A stretch of 57,517 bases of DNA, filler included, from Dugesia japonica (GCA_001938525.1; 5 parts of 5 records of this genome joined end to end with filler, not necessarily neighbours in it); one strand, 5' to 3'. Shown: positions 2,349 to 56,210, numbered from the whole stretch's first letter. Numbers and translations: made by a program. The notes: a model not told the origin generated them from the letters alone.

Positions 2349-3774
2349 GATACACTGACATTTCACATAAAGAATTTTCACATAAAAACTTTATACAAAA
2401 AATTTTTACAGAAAAATTTCACAAAAAGAATTTTCACATAAAAACTTATAATAATAAATTAGATCAAATGCATAAAAGAATAGAAGAACAAATCAGGCAT
2501 TATTAAGAATAAAAAAAATCAAATTATTATATGAGATAATAACATCAGCATGGTTAATGCTTAATTCGATCAAATAGGTTAAAGATTTATTAAATAAATA
2601 CCAGATAATATAATTACAAAATATACAAGTTAATTATTTAAACTTAAATGAAATAATTTACAGTATATCTTGATGAAAAATTGCATTAGCAAGTTAGTCA
2701 ATATTCCAATTTTATCTATTAAAATTAGTAGTTGTTTTAATTGAAACAGATTTGGCGCTAAATTTATAATTTATATGAAACCAAAATTATTTATATAAAC
2801 TTTATTTTTAGAGATTTTAAATGTTTACAGTTACAAAGACAACTAAGAATAACTTAATGCTTACAGATGTTGAGTTGGAATATTACTTAAACTCTAAAAC
2901 GTCAACTAGAATGTACTGGGTTTGCACGAAATTTGAAATATATAATAGTAGGCTAACAACGAATTTGGTTTCTGGCAGCGATTATATCATTGTCAGAAAG
3001 GTGACACAAAGGATAAAGCCTTGGAAAATCCTACTGCCCAGCCTTCTAATACAAAAAGAGCTACGTTCTATAAACGATTTGGATGTTTTGGCCGGTATAG
3101 CAGGGGAAAAAATCAATGCTTAAGACATTTAATAGGATACAGAATTTTTTAAGACTAATTATTCCTAATACTAGTTCATGTTGTATAATAAACTCGCCAT
3201 ATAATACTACATATAGTGGTACACCATTTCTTAGATATGATTCTGGAGTTGAAGATATTCAAAGTTTGATATTTATTCTGATGAAGGGCTTAAATATATC
3301 AGTAGAAGTACTTATTTATATACTGATGGTACATTTAATACAGTTCCAAGTATTTTTTCTATTTATATACAATACACGGAGGGCAGAGCTTTCCTTTTAT
3401 TTATGTTCTGTTTCTTCGTAAATCGAACCAATTATATAAAATAATTTATCAGCATATCATTAGGGCTGCACTTAGCAATCGGTTAATTTTTAATCCAGAA
3501 ACTATTATGACGGACTTTGAAATTGAACCCATAAGCGCAATATCAGAAGTTATTCTAAATCGTCGAGTTAAAGGATGTTTGTTTCATTTTAATCAATCTA
3601 TATGGAGAAAAGTACAAGAAAAAGGTCTTTCTCGGCTATATATAGGTATAGAAAGCATAGAGATAAAAGATTCCTTGTTAAATATCATAACAATATTATA
3701 ATATGTTTTTATGTCAAAAATATTTATGTGAAGAGTTTTTATGTAAAAATTTTTATGTGAAATGTCTGGGTGCC
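2349..3774 (+). mobile_element. Mutator-like (MULE) DNA transposon, internally deleted and decayed
   Basis: TIRs built from GACATTTCACATAAA / TTCACATAAAAA subrepeats at both ends; 8-9 bp TSD (C)ACATACAT at 2340/1-2348 and 3774/5-3782. Confidence 0.85.
2821..3701 (+). pseudogene. MULE transposase pseudogene (FLYWCH-like N-terminus plus MULE DDE domain)
   Basis: Motifs YWVC, YTDGTFNTVP, IMTDFE and GCLFHFNQSIWRKVQ spread over frameshifted fragments. Confidence 0.85.
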
Positions 3775-3844: not shown

Positions 3845-4510
3845 CCCCCTTTTTAAAGTGTTTTGACCATTCAATATTTCTTATTATTTTTTTACCATTA
3901 GTAAGTTCTTATTTTAAACTCCTATCATGTATTTTCTATATAATTATTGCTGGTCCTTCATATCTGTTTTCATTTTTATGTGAACTTTCTCTTTTTATTA
4001 AAACTGCGTCACAATATTAAATTTTTTAACTGAATAATTCTTCTTTGAATTTGTAGAATTTGCATAGTTGTTTAAATTGTTCATTATTCTTTTACGCTTT
4101 AGATTTATTTCATTTACATTGTTTTTATCATTTCTAACAATCCATTCTTTGTGTAAATTTTTCTCAAAAACTATTTCAGCTGGAGCTACATTCTTCGTTC
4201 TCTGAAGTGTGATGTTCAACATAAATTCTATTTCTGGTATAATTTCAGCCCAGTCCTGTTTTTTCTTATCCTGTAAACTAATTTTAATTGTATCTCTTAA
4301 AATTCGAAATTGTATTGCAATTATTACATTACTTCTATGGTGATATGGACTAGAGTATTGGATTTCGCAATTAAATTCATTAGCTTATTGTTGGAATAGA
4401 TTTGTTTCAAATGATTTTCTACGATCTGTATGTATTTTTCTCGTTGCAACATATTTCAAAATCCATTTATTTTTTAATATTCTAACAGTGATATTTTCAT
4501 TTTTATAGAT
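3845..4510 (-). pseudogene. Ty3/Gypsy integrase core and C-terminus remnant
   Basis: IHTDRRKSFE, YSSPYHH, DWAEIIPEIEFMLN, APAEIVF, YEGPA (GPY/F-like); ends at a PPT. Confidence 0.8.
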
Positions 4511-10418: not shown

Positions 10419-10518
10419 NNNNNNNNNNNNNNNNNNNNNNNNNNNNNNNNNNNNNNNNNNNNTTAATTAATTAANNNNNNNNNNNNNNNNNNNNNNNNNN
10501 NNNNNNNNNNNNNNNNNN
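10419..10518. other. Artificial contig linker
   Basis: 44N + TTAATTAATTAA (stops in all six frames) + 44N. Confidence 0.97.
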
Positions 10519-11302
10519 TGTGTTCTAGCCCAACAAATTACTGGGGGCCCTCAAAAAATTCCGCCCCGGAATTTCTCTCAAAAATTCCTTTTAGTACCAT
10601 TTCCTCTGGAATCTAACAACGTTATTTATCATAGCTCGGCTTTTAATATGATGGAGGCTCTGTCAAATTTCAACAGGTCAAAAGCTCCCTGAAGCAAGAG
10701 TCTAATAGGTCATAAAATTAAGTAAAGTAAAGAAAACAAGATGCAGAAACAAAATACATTATTTCNNNNNNNNNNNNNNNNNNNNNNNNNNNNNNNNNNN
10801 NNNNNNNNNNNNNNNGCAAGAGTCTAATAGGTCATAAAATTAAGTAAAGTAAAGAAAACAAGATGCAGAAACAAAATACATTATTTCATTAGAATATCAA
10901 TACACATGCATAATTTACCATCATACTCATAATTACATAAACAAACCGTCTACCACATTATTGATCAAATACTAGCCACTCAACATTTTAAGTTCGCCGA
11001 TCACATTTATTGTCACCATAANATAGAATCACTATATAACTTTTTAGCTTACTTACTCTTTTGTCAACGGAACCGACTTTGAGATAACTTTAGCATTTGA
11101 GATGAATAGCCGAATTTGGAGACAACTTGGCAGTATAGAGCTGCACGACAAATGGAGATTACCAAATGGACAGTAGAGAACTGCCAGAGCACACTTGGAT
11201 AAATATAATTTGTTCAATTACACAATTATAGAGTTTTGTCACAGGAATCGTGATAGTATTTACATAGTCACTCGCAGCATAGAACTGCTCGAAACGAAAA
11301 TT

Positions 11303-12235
11303 CTATCGGCCCCAGAACAGATCCTCCTCGGACACTGAGAAAGGCCATTGAGATGATTGATCGGGATCGGGGAGAATAGTGGGAGATTGAGAATCGGTTT
11401 TTTGAGCTGCATACTGGTCGAGCAAGCTGATCCGCTGGGCGACTGATCGCCTATTTGTTTTATAGCTGTAGAATGTCTGTTCCACCTTAGTGAGATTTAT
11501 CTGTCGTGGTGGAATTACGACTCGGACTAGGGTTTCTTTGAGCGGGATATTCTCGTCATGTAACTGTTTTACGGTCTCCTCTAAATGTCGAATATTAAAC
11601 TCGCTCTCTTCTGTTTCGTTTTTCCAGCACTGACTTTCTTCGGTGAGGCTCGCAGTTTTAGTTTGAAGGTATTTAATAATATTTTCGAGGTTTTGAATAT
11701 CACTCTGATATTGTTCACGCTCTAATCTCATGGACTGGATTTCTCGCACTAATCTTTCATTATCTCTATGTAGATGATTCAACTTCTCTTGTTGATTCTG
11801 TTGATTGGACNNNNNNNNNNNNNNNNNNNNNNNAATTGTCTTTTCCAACATTTTAATTTTTTTGGCTTGCCACTTTACTTGAGTCTCTAACTCTTGAATT
11901 TGTTGCTGAGCTCTTTTCCAATTGTCTGCCAATTCTCGTTGTTGGCGTGAAATTATTTCATCTTTGCTCCCATCTGACCTTCTCCGATAATTTACTGGTT
12001 TAACGACATTCTCGTTGTACTCTCTCTGCTTCTGCTTCGGATTGTTGTCTTGCCTTGACTCGCACTCTTAGTCAACTGCTCGAGCTTGGGGTTAGAGTTT
12101 CTCTCGGATCTCACCCGATTTTGTTGATTAGTTGTTGTTCACTAACGACTCATTACAAGTTTGGTTATTATTTCGACAGTATCGTTTGATTGCTCCTCTC
12201 TGTCGAGCCATGCTGTTTGAACTTCGGGATGCCAT
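11303..12235 (-). pseudogene. Coiled-coil accessory ORF (track ORF 11303-11932; probable original ATG at 12235, disrupted)
   Basis: Long Q/E/K/L heptad-rich region; the open frame extends upstream of the track TTG start to about 12068; AAAATGG start context at 12235. Confidence 0.55.
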
Positions 12236-12734
12236 TTTCTTAATTGAAATACAGATAAACATGGTATTGAATATTTACACATTAAGACATCGGGAGTAAT
12301 GATGACAACAAATTTACTGGTTAATCAAATTTTAAATGAGATTGATATTTACAAATTGTTTTAATAGTGTTTCATTGGTTACTTCTACTGTACTGTATCC
12401 TGAATTTTTATGTTTATTTACAATTTACCAAGTATCACACTCACAGATACACTACATGCCACTCCTCATTGGGCCATTTACACACTAAATTTGACTTCTC
12501 CGTCAGTATCATCTCCACAACACAACTCCGCAATTTTCGAAAATACTCAGACACTGTATATACAAATTGGAATTATTCTGATTACGCACTTATTAAATAA
12601 CTATAATTTGTGAGTCTACTTATACGATACTTTTACTGTTTTTTATTTTTGGAATATAAGTTTTTTTTTACATAGTAATACAGTTACTATTTAATACATA
12701 TAATCTTCCGTAATCTACAACTCGGCATCCATCA

Positions 12735-13250
12735 TCATACATTACTCTCTTCTCCATACCACATCCTCTCACTAGTCTCGATAGTGTTCAGGATTGTGGA
12801 TACGCTCGGTATTCGGTTAATTTGGGATAAGATAAGCTCTGTATTATAAGTCTGTAACTCCTCTACTTGGTGTATCAGATCCTCTACGACTTCATTAGTT
12901 CCACTCAGGGTTTGCAGGTAAAAGTTCTGATTCTCGGTAATCTGTCGTCTCTGGTTCTCCACTAATTTATTCAAAAGGTGTATCTGCATCACATAAAAAT
13001 TTTGATTCTCCACAAGGGTTACGTTTAATTGTCGTGTCTGTTGTAACTGTTCGTTTAATGCATCAGAATTCCTCATTACACTCCGGCAGTGTTCGTCACA
13101 TAAATTCTCCATTGCAAAATACGGATTTAAAGGTTGATTAAGTAGTTGAGTATAAGTTTGCACCGGTTCCTCCATAATTGCTCTGTCGACATCGTCTAAA
13201 TCCACATTTACTGTTAACAGTCCATTCATTGTTATCTGTTTCTGTTCCAT
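12735..13250 (-). CDS. 171-aa Q/N/E-rich coiled-coil accessory protein, unknown function
   Basis: Intact ATG-to-stop ORF with AAAATGG context; internal repeat ENQNFY x2; heptad pattern. Confidence 0.65.
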   Translation of the reverse strand: MEQKQITMNGLLTVNVDLDDVDRAIMEEPVQTYTQLLNQPLNPYFAMENLCDEHCRSVMRNSDALNEQLQQTRQLNVTLVENQNFYVMQIHLLNKLVENQRRQITENQNFYLQTLSGTNEVVEDLIHQVEELQTYNTELILSQINRIPSVSTILNTIETSERMWYGEESNV

Positions 13251-13578
13251 TTTACTAAATAAATACTATGATAAAAATACTACAGTGATCCATTCTAAAT
13301 CAAGTTTACAAATTGCTCCATATTTTAATTTTAATTTATTCAGCTATGCTCTACTTTACATTTCGAGCTACTCAAAAAACTAAATTGTGTACCTTACTGT
13401 ACCTTACATTTCAGGTAATTTATTTACAACTTTGCTCTCACTATTCTCCTCAATAACTCCGTAACGACTCAGTTCCTCCCTCCGGAACTCCCAACCGCAC
13501 CAACTCTCTTGGTGGGTATAAATATTTCGCCGTCAACTCTCTTAACTCTGGTTCCAATCGCAGTCTCGGATACTGCCC

Positions 13579-15143
13579 TCATTTTGCTTTACAGATTAAT
13601 ATTGTTATAATCGTCATCATGATAATCGTACTGACGCCCGCTACTCCACCACTGAGTCTTGCTGACCAATTCCTTTCATTTTCCAGTTTGCTTTGCAACG
13701 TTGATGCCTCATGCCTCAACTTAGCTTTTACTGGAAATGTCCGTCGTGAACCAGTCCTTACCAACTCTTTCATTAATTTTTTAAAAAAATCCTCTTGCTG
13801 ATTATTTAAAATATTTGATGGCTGCCTCATAGATTTACTTTCAGTTGTCGTTTTCACATACCTCGTCATTGCATGGTTTCTCTTTTTGCTTCGTACACTG
13901 GTTTCTCTCGTGCTTATCTTCATGATAGTTGTTGTCGCCGTTGTGGTCGTTTTCGGATACACCATCGTCGTCAACTTCTCTGTTGTTACCCGGACCGTTG
14001 TCGTCCTCAAGTATGTTTTCGCTTTTGTTCTCTCTTTTGTCGTCGGTTTGACGGGTAGTGCCTTGTTGCCCTGGGGTGCCTCGTCTACTAATACATATTC
14101 TAATTCTAACCACTCCCCATTTTTCCGATTAAGTTTCATTATCATTTCGTGTTGATTACGCTTCCATCTATACTCTGGTAACACTCCGTCTTGCGCTCAA
14201 TATTTAAAGATTGATATTGCTTAATCCGAAACAACAATTTCTTTCTACGCGACACTTGAAACGTATTTTCTGCATCTTGGGGTGTCCTTTGATTCTCTTT
14301 ATCTACTATACTCATTTTCATATCGATCATAGGCCACTCTNNNNNNNNNNNNNNNNNNNNNNNNNNNNNNNNNNNNNNNNNNNNNNNNNNTCTTGGGGTG
14401 TCCTTTGATTCTCTTTATCTACTATACTCATTTTCATATCGATCATAGGCCACTCTCCTCTTCAAAAGGCAGAAGGCTGTCCGCTTACACCTGATGGAAA
14501 CTGGTTCCATTGAATACTTGTTACTGCGACTCGTTTCAACCCTTTCCTTGAGATTGTCTGCACTTGCGTTTTATAGTAAGTCATATAGATTCGATGCTCC
14601 GTATGAATATCCTCGTAATCATTACACTCTTCTCCACTTATCACTTTGAACACCATTAGCAGTAATACCGCATCCATCCACTTGTCCGATTGACTTGTTA
14701 ACGGACTCACATTCCTCGGAATCTCGGTGTCTGGCTGCACTTCACGCTGTAATTTCGCTTGATTATTCACGTTTATTACTAAGATTACGATTGTCACTGC
14801 AAATGCTAATGCNNNNNNNNNNNNNNNNNNNNNNNNNNNNNNNNNNNNNNNNNNNNNNNNNNCGATTATCGTTAGTCGTCTGGTTCACTACAATGGTTGG
14901 TCCTGCTGGCCAATCTCGTTCCATCCCTATCACTTCGTATGTGATCAACGCCATTAGCACATATATCCATTTATTCATTAGCTTGTTTTGTCTATTTGCT
15001 CCACTGGACGCCGTGGCCTACTCGTTGAAATCATACAATTTTGTCACTTGTACTGTTGTTGGCCATGCTACCGCTGTTAGCGTTACTAACCAAAAAATAA
15101 TTATTGATACGGGTATCAATGCTAAGCAAGTCCATATTGTCTT
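13579..15143 (-). pseudogene. Multi-hydrophobic, Thr-rich, C-terminally anchored membrane module (env-like), end of the giant frame
   Basis: Hydrophobic segments IWTCLALIPVSIIIFWLVTLTAVAW, WIYVLMALITYEVIG, ALAFAVTIVILVINV and WMDAVLLLMVFKVISG; Thr-rich stalk; terminal GVAGVSTIIMMTIITILIC. Confidence 0.6.
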
Positions 15144-17400
15144 TCAAAAATTTCTCAGAACAGATGGCTTTGTTTCCTCTCTTGGGTCTCCCAATTCTAT
15201 TTCATAAATATGATCTTGTGATTCTGATTTTGTCATTGCGTATACATAATTTCCTTCTGACGTGTTATTCCCATTCGTGGGTGGTTCTGGTAACGGAGCT
15301 TCTCGACTCGGTCCTTTAATCGTTGCAAGATCCATCATAAAGTTACTTTCTTGTTCTATTATTTGTTGATTTTTTCCAACCTTTCTTTCCTCTTGTTTTT
15401 CTTGAGTTGCTCTAATCTCCTTCATTACCTCAGGTGTGAACGGCATCTCAAACGGGACATTGCCCTTGAGGTCCATCATTCCAATTATTACTATCTCGTC
15501 CTCGACTTTGTCATTATCTTTTGTGTCGCCCTCCAGAGTCCCACAAAAGTTTAACATTTCCGCTTCCTTCAGCGTTTTAGTTTTCGTTTGTGGTTTCGGG
15601 GTTCCATGACATTTTTGCAATCGTTTGCCCCTTCTCCTTTACTCGAATCCTGTTCTCGTTTTTGTTTTGCTCTACGCTGCAGTGCTTGTAGGTGCAATTT
15701 TTGCATCGCTTTACTCTCTTCTACCAACAATGGATGTGGATAAACATAGGCTATTCTCTGGTACTCGATTACTATATCTTCACTCCATCTTAATCTCTCA
15801 TCACACTCTTGTTCGGCAAGTGATTTTCCTCCATTTTTAGATATTCCTCTATCTCTTTGTAGAGCGCACCATATTCTCTTTTATACTCTTGCTCATGATA
15901 CTTCTGAAGTTCTTGATCTGTCGGCCATTTCTCCATCCTATCCCCATCCTGTATCGTGGGGAATTTTTCTCCTGGACGTTCTGTACACCATTTGCGTTTT
16001 TCCCTTGATAATATGCTTGCATTTCTAACTTTTTCTCTTTAGGTATGTCCGTTCCACGACTCAATACTGTTTCTACGGTTAATAATATGGCAGTTTTTAT
16101 TTCCTCATTTTCTTCCTTTCTTTGTCGCTCCTCTTCTGACGTTGGCCGCTTTCCAGACCTCTTTTTATCGTTATACCCTGATACTTCAAGCTTTCCTTCC
16201 TCTTTATGTTTCTGGGCCCATTTTTCATAACATCTTTCACCGTACGCTTCAATCTTTTCTAGCGCGGCTCTTGGCACCTCCACCTTGTCTTTACAATACG
16301 CTCTCAGCATGGCTATCGTCTCGGCATTAAATATTTCATCTTCCTCAGCCCCGGCCCTCTGGCTATTTTCTGCTTAATACTGCTTTCTTTGTGTCAAAAA
16401 CTCCTGCCATACATCACCCTTTAGTTTTGTGATTTTTGGCGTATCGCTCTCGTCTGCTTGCGGTGGTCGTCCACTAAATTCACAATAGTCCATCATTCCT
16501 CTTTTTATTACTTCCTCTAGTGAATCGTAACCATTTTCACCGTTATCATTATCTGAATAAGAATCCATTATTTCCATAGTCGTACTTTGAACTTGCCGTC
16601 TTTTATTTTTATTCTTTCTGTTCCTCTTTCTCCGATTTCCAATTTTTTCCGATGTGCTAAGCAGAGTTTTCAGTTCGCTGTTGTTTTCCTGTTGTAATTT
16701 TAGTTTCTGAGACAGACATGAACGAGTTTCTATCATTTGGGCTTTCTTTTTCGTTAATTTCTCCATCGTTTTTTGTTGCCTCTCTGCTTTTTGTTGAATC
16801 TCTTGTTTATCTTTCTCTAATTTCACTACCACTTGTTCGAAAGCTTGTTCAGAGACCCTGAAGTGGAACAATTAAAAAACGCGGTACAGTGGGTACAAGC
16901 TTTCGAACAAGTGCTGGCCCGTCATTTTCTTTAATAAATTGTAGCATCTCGGTCATCCTATTGGCTTGTTCCGCTTTATATTCCGCATCATTTAGTTTTC
17001 CTTCATATTTTTCTTGACGCTTGCTGTGGGCTTCCTACATAGTTTTCAACTTTTGTTTATTCTCCTCGGAGATAGTTAATTGTGAGTTTTGTCTCTTTAA
17101 ATCGTAGTATGTACTGTTGCTCTCTCGCATCTCTTTCATTATTTGTTTTTTGTCAATTAATTCTTTGTGAATTCTCCGTATTCGCTCATTGAACAACAAC
17201 TCAGGCCAATCACTCCCCCTGTTTGAAAAATCGACGTCCTCGTCGATGCCCTGCATTTGACAATTAGTCTTACTCCACCTTTCCTTCGGTGTTATTGATG
17301 TCAACAATTCTCCTTTAACTGGTATGGCTTGGCCTAGCTTTAACCCTTTCCTGGCCTCGTGTAACACAATAATTGCCTCTTGCAATTGACCGCGCATATC
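15144..17400 (-). pseudogene. Coiled-coil / basic / acidic middle region of the giant frame
   Basis: Track ORFs 17035-17475, 16374-16871 and 15849-16310 join through single stops and a repairable micro-inversion; the link to 15144-15620 needs frameshifts; NLS-like RRKRNRKNKNKRR. Confidence 0.6.
16830..16913. repeat. 19-bp perfect inverted repeat flanking an inverted 46-bp coding segment
   Basis: CACTTGTTCGAAAGCTTGT (16830-16848) and its reverse complement (16895-16913). Confidence 0.9.
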
Positions 17401-19020
17401 GATTGCGCATTCCCAACACAATTCTTTGTATACCGTTTCTAGTACTGGCAACTCCACCTGGACTTTTACGTTCACACAACTGACACAACCTGCACTGTCT
17501 CAAACTCCTGTATCCAGTAACCATTGACCTCTGCGTTCGACTTGTAATAACGACCGTTTAATACTACGCTTCGTCCTTCGGTAACACTTTTTACATAACT
17601 TCATGATATCTACCGCAGTGATAGAGCATCGAGTAGGCTTCCATGCTCTACATTCATCGCACACTGTCGGTTCGATCTCATCATTTTCCTTTGATGTCGA
17701 CTGATCCTTGTAGATCCAATACTCCTCATTCTTTGTAGTAACTATCTAAACACCGGTCAGACATGGTTGGCATAACGGTGTCCATCCACTCTGGGGAATT
17801 AGTCCTTTCATGTTATATCGTCCGCATCTTGGATTGTCACATTTTCGATTCACTTTCTTCCAGTCGTCCGTCACTGAAGAATAATATTGATTAAGCATGT
17901 CTCGTCAATTTTCATAAATATTTGATTGGTCAGTTAATTTGAATTTTTGTAAGATTTCGTCATGAGTTAATTCTTTATCCCGTCTAATAGAATTGACTGC
18001 TGTTAAACCTCTCATATGTACATGTAAGCACTCCAGTTCATTGTCAATAATTCCTTTAGCCTTGCACAGGCAATTATTACACCATTGCTTATATAAATCC
18101 TCGTCTTATTTCAGTTTGAACGCTATTTCATTACATTGTTCACAGGTGGAACCATGGGATTCCTTTCTGTCTTCTCGTAATGATTCTCGTTGGACACTTT
18201 TCTCCATCAACATTAAGTTATCATAGATCGATTGTAAGCAGTGAAAACATGCTTGGCTCATAAGCACTTTATTCAATGGCACTTTATTCGAAGATCTCGT
18301 ACAGTGACATATTTTACATGGCAAGACTAGATTCTCCTGATTGCATATACTCGGATTGTTGTCTACCGCTTTAATAGTTTTCTCAGCTTTAATACTCCTG
18401 CTTAAGATTAACTGATCTTGCTTTTTGCTGGTAACTATTTGCATCACTAACAGACACGGCTCACATATCTGCTTTTCCAGATTACGCCTGCAACATCCTT
18501 GCTCGTTGGAATGCCCACATTGTGGATTATTACATTTTCGACTCCCTTGAGTCACTCCTTCCTTTATAAGCGAGTAATATTGTCTCAATATAACACCGTC
18601 ATTCTCACAGATATCTGAATTATTAACTACCTCATTTTGTTGTACAATCTCATTTGGCGCTGGTTCTATATTCCGTCGTACAGGATTTGCAGCTTTCAAC
18701 CATTTTAAGTGTTTATGTATACACCTAATCTCTGTTGTAGCAATTCTTTGTGCGAAGCTCAAACAACTTCGGCACCACTGTTGGTATTCACTTGTTACAC
18801 TTGGTAATTTAATCGATGTCCGACCACATAATTCGCATGATAATTTGTTCATAATAAACTTCCCTCTCCCCTGCTGGGTAGATTCCCGAATCAAATTCTC
18901 CACTAACTCTGCTACATCATCACACATAACCCGCAAACAATGATAACATGATTTTCCCATTAGTTCTTTGCTTAATGGCACCGAATCCGGTTTTGTTGCC
19001 TCACAGAATATACACCACTT
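17400..19020 (-). pseudogene. Tandemly repeated Cys-rich (CxxC...CxxC) region fused after the integrase
   Basis: Two about 232-aa units plus a partial third, read in frame through stops at about 18106, 17905, 17746 and 17500. Confidence 0.75.
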
Positions 19021-19279
19021 TTCTTGTTTAACACTTTTATTTTCTTGAACTTCACCCTTAGTACTTTTGGTTTTACTGGTCTTCGTATTCATCATCATTA
19101 TTTGTTGTCTGGATCTAATCAGGTATCGATCCTCTTCATCAATGAATCTAGTTTTGAAACTAACTCTTTTTGTCTTTTTAATTTTGTGTTTAACCTCCTC
19201 GTCTTTGTCCTCCATTTTTTGCTTAACTGAGACTCGTCTCACTCTTTCCACAGTCTCCTCATCGCTTTCTTTATCATTG

Positions 19280-21100
19280 TCGTCTTCGGTTGCTGCTAGT
19301 TTACATCTTGATACGTGAACGATACTTGGCGTTTTAAGTGGTTTTCCCACTTCCTTTACTTTTAGATTCGTTGCAGTTGTCTCTAACACTAAATATGGTA
19401 CTTTGTTTGGTCGTTTTAATTTATCCGTGGTTCCAATTTCGATTGTTGGTGTATTAATTAATATCATGTCACTCTTTTTAAACGAATGGGGCTTTGTATC
19501 TCGATCATATAATTCCTTGTAACTCTCCTGGTTAAACTTCGCATTTAACGCTGCCAATCTCCATATTTCTTGCATTCTCTCTTTCATGCCGGTAACGTAA
19601 TCATCCTCGTCCATATATTGCGATATTGGCCACTGATGCTCTAAATCTATTGGCATATTACATTCTCGACCGTACATTAGTTTAAAAGGTGAAGCTTTGG
19701 TCGCGGGATGTTCTTCCATCTGATAGGCAAATAAACATAAATTCAAATGTTTGTCCCAATCTCTCTGCAATTTCGTTGCATAACTCGATAACATTCTAGT
19801 CAATGTCTGATTGAATCGCTCTGTCATTCCATCCGTTTGTGGATGATACTCTGATGTCCGTACTTTATGAATATTAAAATAACTAGTCACTTCTTTCATT
19901 AATTCACTCATGAAATTATTTCCTTGATCTGTCAATATTTTTTCGCTGGGCCGTATCGACTGAATAATTTATCTACTAATACTCGTGCGATTGTCGACGC
20001 TTTTTGATCCTTTATTGCAAATGCCTCGGGAAACTTTGATAAATGGTCCACTACTGTCAAGATATACGCTTTTCCACTGTCCGTTGGTGGGAATGGTCCC
20101 ATGATGTCCATTGCAATTATATCCATTGGTGCCGCTGGCACGGGTATTGATTGTAACGGCACTTTGAATTTCTTTCCCGTTCCTTTTCTTGCCGCACAAA
20201 TCTCGCATTTACTAATCCATTCATTTACACAAGTTGTAATATGAGGCCAGTAATATTTTGCTCGTAATTTTGATTCGGTTTTCTTTGCTGACATATGACC
20301 TCCTAGAATTCCATTATGATACTGCTCCAGTATTTTCGCTCGTCTACATTTTGGTATTACTAATAACCGTTGATCACCTTCCATCATCATTAACCATTCG
20401 TTCACCACAGTCTATCTACCACCTTGTTTCTTTAAATGTGCCTTCATCGCTTTGTTACACTCCACTTTGCTCAAATCAAAGTGAAATATGTACTCTAGAA
20501 TTAATCTTACTTCCTCGTCTTCGTCTTGATCCCTTTTCAATCCGGTAAAATCTTTATTCTCCGCCAATATCATACATAAGGATCGTATGTCTTGATTCAT
20601 CAATTGCTGTAAGTCTATCCATTCGCTTCTGGTTGCTTTATTTTCTACCACCTCCTCCGGTTCGTCTGTAAATTTTGCTCTTGACATATAATCTGCATTT
20701 GAATTTGCTTTTCCTCTTTTGTATTTGACCAGCGGTGCATATTCTTGTAGCTTCATCGCCCATCTGGCTATTCTATTTGCTTGTAAAGGTTTTTGTCCGA
20801 TCATTGTTATTGGCTGATGATCGGTGTAAATTACTTAAGTATGTCCAAATATTAACTGATTAAAATGTTTTACAGCCTTTACTATTGCCAGGATTTCTCG
20901 TTCAGTGGTGCTATAATTCTTTTCAGATCTTTGAAATGTTTTACTAAAATATCCGATCACCCTTTCTCGTCCTTCTTCGTCTAATTGACTCAATACGGCA
21001 CTCATTGCATAACCCCTTGCATTCGTTGCGAGTATAAATGGTTTCCTAAAATCTGGTTGTACCAGTATCGGTGCCGTCATTAACTTTTCTCGAATTGTTT
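19280..21100 (-). pseudogene. pol: Ty3/Gypsy pol: RNase H plus integrase (two in-frame stops, one frameshift in an A-run at about 19940)
   Basis: PDFRKPFILAT, NYSTTEREILAIV, YTDHQP, NADYMSR; YHNG..GGH...CEIC (HHCC); IAMDIMGP / TDQG / DGMTERFNQTL (DDE); KLKRPNKVPY and VHVSRCK. Confidence 0.95.
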
Positions 21101-21200
21101 NNNNNNNNNNNNNNNNNNNNNNNNNNNNNNNNNNNNNNNNNNNNTTAATTAATTAANNNNNNNNNNNNNNNNNNNNNNNNNNNNNNNNNNNNNNNNNNNN
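21101..21200. other. Artificial contig linker
   Basis: 44N + TTAATTAATTAA + 44N. Confidence 0.97.
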
Positions 21201-45150: not shown

Positions 45151-45819
45151 TCAGATAAACTGATAATCATCAATCGTACTTTGTTCATTCCTTATGGTGT
45201 TAAAAAAATCTAACCATTGTAAATCAAATTGGGATTTACTCCACGATAAAAATTGGTCCAAAGAATTTAAACGCTGCTCAACAGTGTCTGTTTGTACAAT
45301 ATCACAAGCTGTTACAAAAACACTTTTTAAATCATAAATCAATTTCGAAAGGGTTCCACTCGAAATATTTGGTGACGAATCTCGTCTTAATAATGAATTA
45401 TTCCAATTAAGATCACAATATTCTTCTTTTGTTCGTGTAATGATAATTTTTAATAAAGCATATAAACCATAAAATACAGGAGTTGGACTGAGAAAATTTG
45501 ATAATCCCGAACAGTATTTATCTAAATATTGTAAAGACGAATATCTGATGTTATCTAATTCAAAAAACCGAGTTGATAATAAAGTCAAGTTAACATGAGC
45601 GTTAACTAAATTGATAGTATGATCGATTGGATCACGATTACTGACTGAAAAATAAACTGTTGGATTATCCAATGAGTCCAAATGATTAAGATTTGAATTG
45701 TGTTCTGAAAAAGGAAAATTATGTGCTTCCTTATCGGATTGAAATCTGTCATTTTCTAGTTTAGGAAATCTTGTTATCAAATTGGAAAATATTATTGGAA
45801 TAATAAGCAACAAAAGAGT
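45151..45819 (-). CDS. Probable terminal exon of an unknown host gene (about 222 aa, N-terminal hydrophobic stretch)
   Basis: Stop-free 669 nt in very AT-rich DNA; preceded by a TTTTTTTCTAG acceptor; starts TLLLLIIPIIFS; no recognisable domain. Confidence 0.6.
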   Translation of the reverse strand, partial: TLLLLIIPIIFSNLITRFPKLENDRFQSDKEAHNFPFSEHNSNLNHLDSLDNPTVYFSVSNRDPIDHTINLVNAHVNLTLLSTRFFELDNIRYSSLQYLDKYCSGLSNFLSPTPVFYGLYALLKIIITRTKEEYCDLNWNNSLLRRDSSPNISSGTLSKLIYDLKSVFVTACDIVQTDTVEQRLNSLDQFLSWSKSQFDLQWLDFFNTIRNEQSTIDDYQFI

Positions 45820-49028: not shown

Positions 49029-49128
49029 NNNNNNNNNNNNNNNNNNNNNNNNNNNNNNNNNNNNNNNNNNNNTTAATTAATTAANNNNNNNNNNNNNNNN
49101 NNNNNNNNNNNNNNNNNNNNNNNNNNNN
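49029..49128. other. Artificial contig linker
   Basis: 44N + TTAATTAATTAA + 44N. Confidence 0.97.
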
Positions 49129-49690
49129 TATTCTCATTATAACATCTTCTACTTTATCATCAGGTATTCATGTTCCATCATCATTCTCATCAAAATTGCC
49201 TTGTTTTTCTTGAATATCTACTGTATTTAACATCTTTGTTTTTAATTTCTTACTTTTGGGATCATCATGTGGCATTAGACATTGTGCACATGTACCGCAT
49301 TTACTCCTTGACAACATATCCGCATTTGTATGAAGNNNNNNNNNNNNNTATTCCAATTTTATATCTAAACTCCTCAAATAATTAATCCAGGTTTGAAACT
49401 GTGATGTAATGGCTTCTTGGTATATAGCATAAATGTGATGGCTTTATGGTCTGTTCTGAGGATAAATATCTTCGCATATAAGTAAAGTCTGGAATTAATA
49501 CAAAAGTAATAAATTGCGAGCAGTTCTTTCTGTGTAGTACAATATCTTTTCTCATGACTCGTCATTGCGTGTGACCCATATGCAATTACTCTTTATTGCC
49601 CATTGTTGTCCTTTTGAGATAGTACTGCCTCAATCGTATCAAAACTTGAATCCGTGTTCCAAATAAATCCTCTATTTATATTGGTGGTGG
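49129..49690 (-). pseudogene. Gypsy RNase H remnant, same lineage as 22545-22964
   Basis: MTSHEKRYCTTQKELLAIYYFC, FILRTDHKAITFM, NADMLSR. Confidence 0.88.
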
Positions 49691-50062
49691 ACATAATACA
49701 AGCAGATATTCAAGATGGATTGAATGATTTTCCAATTGCAGTGAAAAATTAAAATGCTCTAGTAGTAGAATGAAAATATTAATACTAACTCATTACCCAA
49801 AAGATAATTATGTCATACATTAAAGGTTACTGCAAATATGCTTTTAGCTGGGTGAACATGTGAAAAAGATACAGAGAAGTATTAAATTTAGCCAGGCATC
49901 GAATTTTAAAAGTTCCACAAAATTAATATTGATCATTTACACCAACAATAATGTAGAACATATAATTATTAATTTTTGGTAAATTTATTTAAAAGTAAAA
50001 TGTTATTAAGGCACCCTTAATTATATTCATAATATTATTTCTTAAAGAGTAGGCTTTAGAAG

Positions 50063-53530: not shown

Positions 53531-53719
53531 TATCATTCTGCAAATTAAATTACATATTTAAATATGGTATTTAAATAAAGGAAACTTTGTTTAAATACTT
53601 TATTTTAATGAAATAAACACTTCTCAAAATTTTTCATTCATTTTTAATTTTGTATGTCCAGATGCCGATATCATCAAACATATTCTTTTTGGTCTGTCTG
53701 TTTCAGCTCCTGGTATTAA

Positions 53720-56210
53720 CAATATCACTTAAATTCCTATCTAGCGGGATTACCCCTGATAGATGGCGGATATTTTCGACTCTTATGATACCCAAGCTGG
53801 GTGAAGCTGGATCATATCACTTTGTCTCGTCTTGGAGACCGATTGCGTTGCTTGATTGCTTTTATAAGCTTTCTATGGCCTGGTTAGCTTCACAACTGTC
53901 TGATTGGGTTCAAAAATTGAAACTCTTACACAATCTACAGATGAGTATTGGAGAATAAGAGAAGTGCTCTGAACAAATTTTTTTGCTTTGCCATCTCCTT
54001 GAAAAACAGAGCCAAAATTAAATGCTTAATCGTCATATTGGCTTCTCGAATATTTCTGATGCTTTTGATAGCATCTCTATTGATCACATTCTTGCTCTTT
54101 CTTCCCGAATAAAGATTTCAAATGTAGCTACTAAGTTGATTAGGAGTCTTTACTAAGATTGATCCAGCTACTATATTTGCAATGGGGTTTACACTAGTCA
54201 CAAAACGAATCATAGTTGGGTACGTCAGAGTTGCTTCTTATCAATGTTATTGTTCAACATAGGTAATGATCCGTTTATTAACAAATTATCTCGGCTCAAA
54301 GGTATGGAGATAAAATGAGCAGGTCACTAAGTTTTTGTGCTAGGCTATGCTGATGACCTTACTCTTGTAGCGTCATCTAAGGCTGCTCTTCAAGACATGG
54401 TTAATGTCGCAGTCAGATTGGCTGACTGATCTTCTATGGAGTTCCGTCCTGATAAATGTGCTTACCTCTCATGCCTTGAAAATCATCCTCTAATTCAATT
54501 CATTATCAAGTGTCAAGCAATTCCTATAATTGTTGATAAAAATTNNNNNNNNNNNNNNNNNNNNNNNNNNNNNNNNNNNNNNNNNNNNNNNNNNNNNNNN
54601 NNNNNNNNNNNNNNNNNNNNNNNNNNNNNNNNNNNNNNNNNNNNNNNNNNNNNNNNNNNNNNNNNNNNNNNNNNNNNNNNNNNNNNNNNNNNNNNNNNNN
54701 NNNNNNNNNNCTTTCAGGAATTTTAACATACCCGTTGGTAAATTTTGGTTGAGTAGGTTTTCCTAAAATTGGGCTGTTTTTTGACCTAAAGAGACTGACA
54801 AATGCATTAGAGATAATATTAAGAGCTGCTCCGTCTGATTATGGTGGGGTAGGTCTTACATCAGCTCGGGATGAGTATTCAATTCAGTCGATTGTGCAAG
54901 GCTTTAAAATACTCATCTACTAGCCATCATTGTTAGAGATTTGGCAAGCAATGCCCTTATTCACGCTGCCACTAAATATGTCAAACAAGCTAAAATCTGC
55001 TCCATTATTGAGGCACTTGATTAATTTCACACTAGAATCACTCAATCTTATTACCAGTGTTGGTGGTCAAGGTTCAAACGGAGATTGAGTACCTCATGAA
55101 TAACCTTGATATTGAGATTAGATTCCAACGCACTAGGCTTGGAGTCTGTCTCTAAATTGTTGATAGATTGTCTGCAGGAAGCCATCTTATTTCATTTAAA
55201 GAGAAGCGGTATGTGACTAACTGTTAGATGAGTTTGGAGTACTTATTGGATCATCAATATCATAACTCAATTCCATAGGAAAATTTATTCAAAAACAAAA
55301 CTATAACCAACATTATTTGTTTATTCAAACAAATTAAAATCTCATGTTTTAATTGGTGACCATTTTTCAAATTATTTAAAAATTTTACTGTACTATTCAA
55401 TCGTCATTTTAAAATTTCAAACCAAATTTTCGTTATTTAAAATTATCCTCTATAATTTAAATTTTTTTTTAAATAAAAGATTTTTAAAAAATATGATCAA
55501 CAATAACACAAAGGTTTCAACTCGCTTTTCAAAACACACTAACATTAACTTTCTTCATTTTCTTGTAAGCTTGTCACACACTAGGAAATGAAACTCTCTC
55601 AATAAATCAGGTCCTCTTTCTAAAGCGATTGGCACTTCATCCATCTCCAATAGACCTCTCTATAATTGATCCATTTCGATGGGTAATTGGAGATTTATTC
55701 ATAGAGCGCGCACTTAAATACTTCCAGTAGGGTGTAGCAAATTCATTGATTACAGAGAGTGTGCTTTTCATCACGAGACTCAATCGCATGTTTTTTACAT
55801 TGTTGTCCAACCTCAGCCTTCCACACTGGGTGACACAGTGATCTGCTTGAGTATCTTGCTAGTTTTATCAAAACCAACACTAGTTTCAAGGGCATTGTCG
55901 ATCAGACATGTGAAATTGTGAACAGGACTGATCGCGTTGATCTTCAATAAATTGCCAAAACTAGAAGAAGAATTATTTCGCTTGATTTAAAGACACGATA
56001 TGACTCTCAAGTCAACATCAATGTTGTCAGGGACAGAAATATTGCCAAATACACACCACTTCCGGGTGATATTAAACGGAANTTACTGAATTGGTTCGTT
56101 TTCCTTGAACCGATCTCAGTTGGTTGCCTGGGATCGTAGTAGGTAGAAAATGAGCAAGTGCTCAAATATGCGGGTCTAAAAGCTAACACTATCAAGAAGT
56201 TTGCTATTGA
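53720..56210 (+). mobile_element. Decayed RLE-type non-LTR retrotransposon (R2/NeSL/Utopia group): RT, zinc knuckle and restriction-like endonuclease; interrupted at about 55250-55560
   Basis: WRPIALLDCFYKL, DAFDSI, GVRQSCFLSMLLFN, GYADDLTL, FRPDKCA, WRFIHRAR, DRVDL, LDLKTRYD, IAKY, VGCLGS. Confidence 0.85.

Follow-up and report, generated by a model that had tools for sequence, protein, structure and literature searches.

The scaffold at 10519-21100 of a stretch of Dugesia japonica DNA of 57,517 nucleotides (GCA_001938525.1; the whole stretch, five parts joined end to end, is called the window below) carries, on its minus strand, what is best explained as a decayed Ty3/Gypsy retrotransposon of which the 3' half is present. 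In this explanation, which we consider probable, the pol belongs with a group of elements of gag–fusion-protein–pol layout, and the reading frame ran on unbroken for ~1,850 residues past the integrase, through a position which this lineage uses as a cargo slot. The finding is confined to this single 10.6-kb scaffold. Spacers of the form N44-TTAATTAATTAA-N44 join the window's scaffolds at 10419-10518, 21101-21200, 34157-34256 and 49029-49128; the one at 21101-21200 cuts the element inside RNase H, and its gag, protease, reverse transcriptase (RT) and 5' long terminal repeat (LTR) are absent. The visible part, RNase H through a downstream open reading frame (ORF B), measures 9.8 kb, and adding the 5' half of a relative would give an element of 15-18 kb. 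The features are collected in Table 1.

The order RNase H followed by integrase (Pfam RT_RNaseH, Integrase_H2C2 and rve, 21098-19938) is that of Ty3/Gypsy elements, and a tree places the pol among Gypsy pols; the GPY/F position of the integrase reads VPY. From the integrase end at 19303 to the stop at 13579 there are 5,724 nt, in agreement with the extension of about 5.7 kb described in an earlier reading made from the sequence without database searches (the sequence-only reading). The first 394 codons past the integrase (19290-18109) are unbroken, which at the off-frame stop rate has a chance of ~1e-18. The best path from 21098 to 13579 was chosen with a codon model whose training set was the 602 codons of pol alone. 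On this model the extension scored -11.9; 100 shuffles gave -325±21 (best shuffle -270), the plus strand of the extension gave -252, and 38 other stretches of the window lay between -172 and -311. Codon use in the extension matches that of pol, while GC content (0.38-0.42) and purine bias (0.59-0.69) are constant from pol to 13579, with a GC of 0.22 outside the element and in the neighbouring scaffolds of this AT-rich window. Stop density is alike in pol (2 in 602 codons) and in the extension (9 in 1,864 codons), and several of the extension stops sit within repeat units whose sister unit stays open. The extension is real coding sequence and part of the same element as pol, as had been proposed earlier together with the view that it fits no assignable family, and our searches with it were blank.

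In the whole path of 2,502 codons there are 11 internal stops and 8 frame changes. Pol accounts for two of the stops and for a single frame change (A-run near 19937), and the extension for nine stops (18106, 17905, 17746, 17500, 17035, 16374, 15144, 15018 and 14462) and seven frame changes (the inversion site, ~16004, ~15816, ~15631, two N gaps and ~14198); we infer an original frame that was unbroken over ~1,850 codons. The sequence-only reading had described the minus-strand ORFs as mostly one frame with an A-run slip, reading through isolated stops to 17035, and this outline was right, with all five stops down to 17035 found behind the open run of 394 codons. The micro-inversion which it had repaired is real, having perfect 19-nt arms and a flipped purine bias (0.36 vs ~0.6). 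This site was also counted as a frame change because the flanking frames differ and an inversion alone cannot alter phase. Continuation of the frame to 15849 did not hold, as the best path leaves it at ~16004 with the further stop at 16374 before that, and the uncertain zone, thought to be limited to 15620-15850, is instead ~370 nt long with changes at ~16004, 15816 and 15631. The distal route from 15620 to 14862, to 14190 and to 13579 was recovered together with its frameshift (~14198), but with the extra stops at 15144, 15018 and 14462 and a second N gap at 14341-14390. This 50-N gap has identical 66 nt on both sides and is an unmerged contig overlap; a further 50-N gap of the same kind, flanked on both sides by identical 72 nt, was observed at 10694-10887. 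The 50-N gap at 14813-14862 is unsized and unphased.

The closest pols (P0010/P0079, P0011, P0012, P0013/L006, P0082 and L003-L010) showed 41-52% identity over the C-terminal half of the integrase. A tree was built from 42 RNase H–integrase rows, being the window and all 41 hits, of 172, that span both domains; the near-duplicates P0010 and P0013 were omitted, as was L008, which has no RNase H. The window falls in a clade of nine rows with a support of 99 in the SH-like approximate likelihood ratio test (SH-aLRT), and in a clade of ten rows with a support of 97 when L011 is added. Relatives with a known 5' part encode single-frame polyproteins of up to 3,735 residues, and in P0011, P0013, P0079, P0082 and L003 a class III fusion glycoprotein (PF24664) lies between gag and protease. 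The nine-row clade groups the window's pol with the gag–fusion-protein–pol layout, its rows being unnamed and the tree being one without a named reference. Ahead of env in the relatives there is a helical domain with a weak Bcl-2-like match (Pfam E 0.14; Bcl-xL E 0.3). Separate ORFs were also found behind the polyproteins of intact relatives, namely RNase T (DEDD-type) exonucleases in L003-L005 (L003:10617-12104, L004:9043-10371, L005:8592-9920), a RING finger ORF in L008 (2055-3389) and, at the L004 end, an ORF with weak likeness to ubiquitin. A search of IMG/VR gave two distant loci, and among the hits at large P0014 consists of two tandem pols and L012 carries its integrase before RT.

In ten of the 13 near relatives the frame stays open past the integrase, for 325-1,157 residues. 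All ten of these intact tails hold the motif YxLRxR or a near variant of it, and each also has a signal-like segment, an ectodomain and a C-terminal membrane segment, with two or more hydrophobic segments per tail. The motif was present in 10/10 intact clade relatives and in 0/146 other integrase hits, a number which includes the three broken near relatives. A strict membrane segment was found in 10/10 intact relatives and in 1/146 other hits, with a background rate of ~0.01 per 170 residues. The idea that long tails are general among the hits was rejected: 60 of the 146 others run for at least 300 residues, none of them with the motif and one with a membrane segment. Four of the ten relatives have exactly YNLRPR, as in the Gag of prototype foamy virus (PFV) (GGYNLRPRTYQP), and the Tyr and the anchor Arg are kept in 10/10 relatives and in the window. 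As described in the parts consulted of PMC12125541 (peptide in Table 1 of that paper), the Tyr and Arg of the PFV Gag motif bind the H2A-H2B acidic patch of the nucleosome.

What stands between motif and signal varies between relatives. There is little in L003, L008 and P0079, and a protease-like stretch, recognized by eye, in L006. In L004 (3645-7106) and L005 (3235-6660) the in-frame tail is ~1,150 residues long and contains an extra protease-like domain of the aspartic type as well as ankyrin repeats and a long ectodomain, and these two relatives prove that cytosolic cargo can lie in frame between motif and signal. The ectodomains of the relatives belong to more than one family. The window tail is the longest among these relatives and fills the lineage-wide slot with its longest load, ~1,400 residues ahead of the signal region. 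The lineage likely uses the integrase end as a slot for swappable extra proteins.

Table 1. Features of the element on the scaffold at 10519-21100, in the direction of reading (positions counted in the window).
Feature	Position	Strand	Basis and remarks
RNase H, Ty3/Gypsy pol	20739..21098	-	Pfam RT_RNaseH E 2e-35; truncated at the scaffold edge; a single stop, 20835-20837
Integrase: H2C2 zinc finger, core, C-terminal domain	19303..20357	-	Pfam Integrase_H2C2 E 1e-17 and rve; 41-50% identity to P0010-P0013
YLIRSR, the clade's post-integrase YxLRxR motif	19108..19125	-	putative function, from likeness to foamy-virus Gag sequence
Eight four-cysteine finger-like units (C-x2-4-C ... C-x2-C)	17305..19026	-	2.5 tandem repeats of ~230 residues
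Charged, probably helical or coiled-coil region	16004..17304	-	basic stretch ~16634-16596, acidic stretches; stops 17035, 16374
Micro-inversion	16830..16913		perfect 19-nt arms 16830-16848 and 16895-16913, 46 nt apart; also a frame change
Weakest link of the path	15631..16004	-	three frame changes, net zero; still scores as coding
Four hydrophobic segments	14633..15143	-	15143-15057, 14966-14922, 14812-14762, 14680-14633 (hydropathy); 50-N gap 14813-14862 inside
Predicted ectodomain, ~170 residues	14032..14632	-	stop 14462, N gap 14341-14390, frame change ~14198
Thr-rich stalk, linker, C-terminal transmembrane helix, stop	13579..14031	-	hydropathy, composition; stop 13581-13579
11-purine tract followed by C-TG	13473..13483	-	sole polypurine-tract candidate downstream, unconfirmed
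ORF A	12735..13250	-	separate, 171 residues, probably helical
ORF B	11303..12235	-	separate, ~310 codons, coiled-coil-like; three stops in 5' part

The cargo of the window begins with a charged linker, which sits between the integrase end and the motif YLIRSR, and continues with finger repeats at 19026-18361, 18324-17686 and 17661-17305, in which the fingers are arranged 3+3+2. Zinc binding by these units is putative. The first repeat is free of stops. Repeats 1 and 2 share 35% identity (E 4e-42) and differ most at third codon positions, with a ratio of non-synonymous to synonymous differences (pN/pS) of 0.53 (bootstrap 0.44-0.64) and a pS of 0.73. Given this ratio and the excess at third positions, the repeats evolved as protein sequence under selection, and by their pS they are old. 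In the charged region which follows, a coiled coil was judged from translation and composition rather than by a prediction tool, and Pfam gave no significant match there.

Of the four hydrophobic segments which come next, the second and fourth are duplicates, the score of one against the other being reached by 0/1000 shuffles, and both resemble signal peptides. A low-confidence AlphaFold model of a piece of the predicted ectodomain shows three strands. The stalk (14031-13831) holds 22 Thr and 5 Ser within 67 residues, and the predicted transmembrane helix lies at 13650-13590. The window ectodomain was tried as a member of the ectodomain families of the relatives and rejected, since between 7 and 196 of 200 shuffles did as well in the profile scores.

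No homologue of the cargo was found in any of the searches. A phmmer search with the 577-residue finger array against 1.84 billion representatives gave 0 hits, and a JGI metagenome scan found the array in 0/43 candidate stretches. The distal 205 residues had 0 homologues in 1,491 candidates, and ten tail pieces gave no match by tblastn against 81 fetched loci. In the ESM Atlas the best score was 0.88, below the level of recognition, and a 72-residue piece covering the last signal-like segment and the ectodomain start gave no usable hit. Nothing in the cargo exceeded the Pfam cut-off, and a profile search of the PDB gave a single chance hit. Structure prediction, to which the sequence-only reading had looked for the extension, was of no help either: AlphaFold gave a predicted local distance difference test score (pLDDT) of 32 for finger repeat 1 and of 48 for the ectodomain piece, neither model being usable, and Foldseek with the latter was without a match at E ≤ 0.001. 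In the parts of the literature consulted, no description was found of a Gypsy integrase to which a finger array, or a tail of signal peptide, ectodomain and membrane segment, is fused behind, literature listings held none of a YxLRxR motif in Gypsy integrases, and the consulted parts of PMC8532177 and PMC11410931 do not give the domain order. Giant Gypsy polyproteins and in-frame tails are already known; the literature searched, as far as the consulted parts go, holds no account of a cargo slot with variable content, of the motif specific to this clade or of the orphan finger repeats.

Several known systems resemble the element in part, and they are compared here as far as the consulted parts of the cited papers describe them. 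Errantiviruses of GAG-ENV-POL order with HSV/gB-type env occur in Platyhelminthes, Nematoda and Bryozoa (Chary and Hayashi, PMC13524379). This gene order, with the class III fusion glycoprotein, is that of the window's nearest pol relatives, whereas for the window itself env is inferred since the 5' half is missing. Chromodomains after the integrase are described for these errantiviruses, and a post-integrase membrane protein or finger array is not, in the parts consulted. A chromodomain after the integrase, which would be expected of a chromovirus, was not found here with Pfam.

The planarian giant elements Burro / GYPSM1 encode a single polyprotein of 4,873-5,140 residues in which an in-frame env separates gag from protease (PMC6431247); the internal region of Burro measures up to 25 kb and its total length exceeds 30 kb, with MATH, ubiquitin-like, Bcl-2-like, BIR and ankyrin cargo, part of the cargo lying between gag and protease. 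The sequence-only reading had called the window element Burro-like, and this fits the layout of the nearest pols, which are single-frame, carry the fusion glycoprotein between gag and protease and read through after the integrase. Like Burro, the relatives show a huge single frame in gag-env-pol order, the weak Bcl-2-like match and, in L004 and L005, ankyrin repeats, and the window joined to a relative's 5' half (1,800-2,700 residues) would reach ~4,300-5,200 residues. The Bcl-2-like match is a lead towards Burro and no test of membership. In the part of the element present, which lacks the 5' cargo region, there was no BIR, ankyrin, MATH, ubiquitin-like or Bcl-2 match, and the four-cysteine repeats and stalked membrane protein of the tail are not among the Burro motifs listed in the parts consulted, a comparison made by description only.

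In Cer1 of C. elegans the integrase extends to about residue 1873 and the polyprotein alignment to residue 2272, and its protein CERV is a nuclear RNA-export protein made from a spliced mRNA (PMC10309623, consulted parts). There too a Gypsy frame runs ~400 residues beyond the integrase with cargo lacking outside homology, but the tail in the window exceeds it 4-5 times in length and has a membrane protein at its end, and the likeness described here is one of layout. The general rule invoked earlier, that Gypsy integrases end soon past GPY/F, thus fails for Cer1 as it does for the ten relatives with intact tails. The chromatin-binding sequence of PFV Gag (PMC12125541, PMC6021111, consulted parts) is matched identically by YNLRPR in the four relatives named above, but the clade motif follows the integrase and not Gag, and a match of six residues may be taken as a lead. 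LTR elements of bdelloid rotifers carry varied cargo after pol as a separate ORF3, including DEDD-type exonucleases (PMC5408684, consulted parts), which is like L003-L005 and unlike the window, where the tail is in frame.

Ogre is an element of the plant Tat lineage. The plant-named hits P0061, P0065 and P0074 fell in a distant clade of our tree, in which Ogre itself is not included.

Downstream of the stop at 13579 lie ORFs A and B, each preceded by a pyrimidine-rich AG. Should the purine tract at 13483 be the polypurine tract (PPT), both ORFs may lie inside a long LTR. The search for element ends that had been suggested earlier was only partly fruitful, since no part of the scaffold at 10519-21100 is repeated elsewhere in the window and paired LTRs were not found, the 5' end being missing, while the one PPT-like tract stands unconfirmed. 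On the next scaffold a second, heavily decayed Gypsy element, unrelated to the pol described here, was observed at 22500-25800 on the minus strand, with RT, RNase H, a protease-like stretch and, by eye, a gag-like region with zinc knuckles. The RT at 23860-23050 was considered as the missing 5' half and rejected, as it stands on another scaffold and has an RNase H of its own that is 30% identical. A third Gypsy RNase H fragment (49400-49710, minus strand) adjoins a scaffold spacer. Elsewhere in the window there were a MULE transposase fragment (3339-3698, plus strand; Pfam E 6e-9), an integrase-like fragment recognized by eye (4001-4384, minus strand), a stretch at 53617-53955 (plus strand) which by eye is like the start of a non-LTR reverse transcriptase and was without a Pfam match at E 0.01, and an open frame of 222 codons without a Pfam match (45154-45819, minus strand).

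Several observations weigh against a single continuous frame filling a lineage-wide slot. Three of the 13 near relatives (L007, L009 and L010) stop 6-26 residues past the integrase match; L007 and L009 resume the same frame into motif and signal-like segment, and L010 is truncated. The window ectodomain matches none of those of the relatives, the window branch is long (1.07), and the tree comes from a quick search without bootstrap. The relatives are drawn from few datasets, with one record prefix for L003-L006 and another for L007, L009 and L010, and because prefixes are shared they do not represent 13 independent hosts. Five frame changes outside gaps, as compared with one in pol, and one unphased gap separate the fingers from the membrane protein. 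A test of open frame after each stop fails to separate the internal stops (23-174 codons) from the final stop (42). Finally, the cargo was found in a single broken copy, and its link to pol rests on the scaffold at 10519-21100.

In a first rival explanation the element is the same but the cargo was not wholly fused to Pol. Pol with the fingers could have ended at the 14813 gap or somewhere in 16850-15630; alternatively, spliced RNAs could have expressed the tail in the form of separate accessory proteins, as with CERV of Cer1. We regard this as rather unlikely, and yet as the alternative with the greatest claim to attention: the frame breaks cluster at 16851-15631, a run of Met codons stands just after YLIRSR, relatives have separate downstream ORFs (the RNase T-type exonuclease and RING ORFs), ORFs A and B lie behind pyrimidine-rich AG sites, and the post-integrase frame of Cer1 is expressed from a spliced mRNA in the account of PMC10309623 consulted in part. 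Against it, the junction zone scores as coding with a coding-like GC of 0.41, as compared with 0.29-0.37 in the element's own spacers, and the net of its three frame changes is zero; unbroken fusions of cytosolic cargo with a membrane protein are seen in L004 and L005; and splicing and fusion are not exclusive. That the distal part came from another element, whether an old nested insertion brought it in or the scaffold was wrongly joined over the 14813-14862 gap, is considerably less likely. The assembly is fragmented with many N gaps, one of them (14341-14390) a proven overlap artefact, and the gap in question is unsized, but composition is equal across it, the duplicated signal-like segments stand on its opposite sides, the sequence from integrase to 14862 is without a gap, there is no internal terminal repeat, and the order ends exactly as in the relatives. 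Least likely of all is that a host gene, for instance one for a zinc-finger protein or a receptor, was captured recently and happens to be in frame. Capture of ORFs downstream of pol is known in LTR elements (PMC6431247, PMC5408684, consulted parts), but the cargo has no homologue in the 1.84 billion representatives, Pfam or the PDB, its codon use is that of pol, and its repeats are old (pS 0.73).

If the tail was a continuous part of one polyprotein, as we favour, the element's protease would free an integrase with a YxLRxR tail, and this tail, by analogy with the foamy-virus Gag motif, might tether the integration complex to nucleosomes. The finger repeats and the charged helical region would remain cytosolic or nuclear, as an accessory protein that may bind nucleic acid or host proteins. 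By means of the internal hydrophobic segments the remainder would be threaded into the endoplasmic reticulum, and cleavage by signal peptidase there would yield a type I surface protein with a mucin-like stalk, most likely the attachment partner of the fusion protein that relatives encode upstream of pol. More tentatively, and with somewhat less than even confidence, this may be an enveloped Gypsy lineage with a modular cargo bay at the pol end, whose limits are a nucleosome anchor of foamy-virus type on the integrase and a second surface protein that can be swapped; in the present element the bay would hold ~1,400 residues, among them a new family of tandem four-cysteine zinc-finger regulators, within a polyprotein of ~5,000 residues that includes separate fusion and attachment proteins.

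The element is known from a single decayed half-copy and has precedents, Burro for giant polyproteins and Cer1 for post-integrase tails. It shows the extent to which in-frame accretion after the integrase can go in an LTR retrotransposon, with cargo that varies among close relatives. It provides two leads, a finger repeat without a known relative, of which the first unit is free of stops, and a candidate nucleosome-anchor motif on the integrase tail, which matches foamy-virus Gag and is confined to the clade among the hits examined. These data point to a strategy like that of complex retroviruses within an element of invertebrate type.

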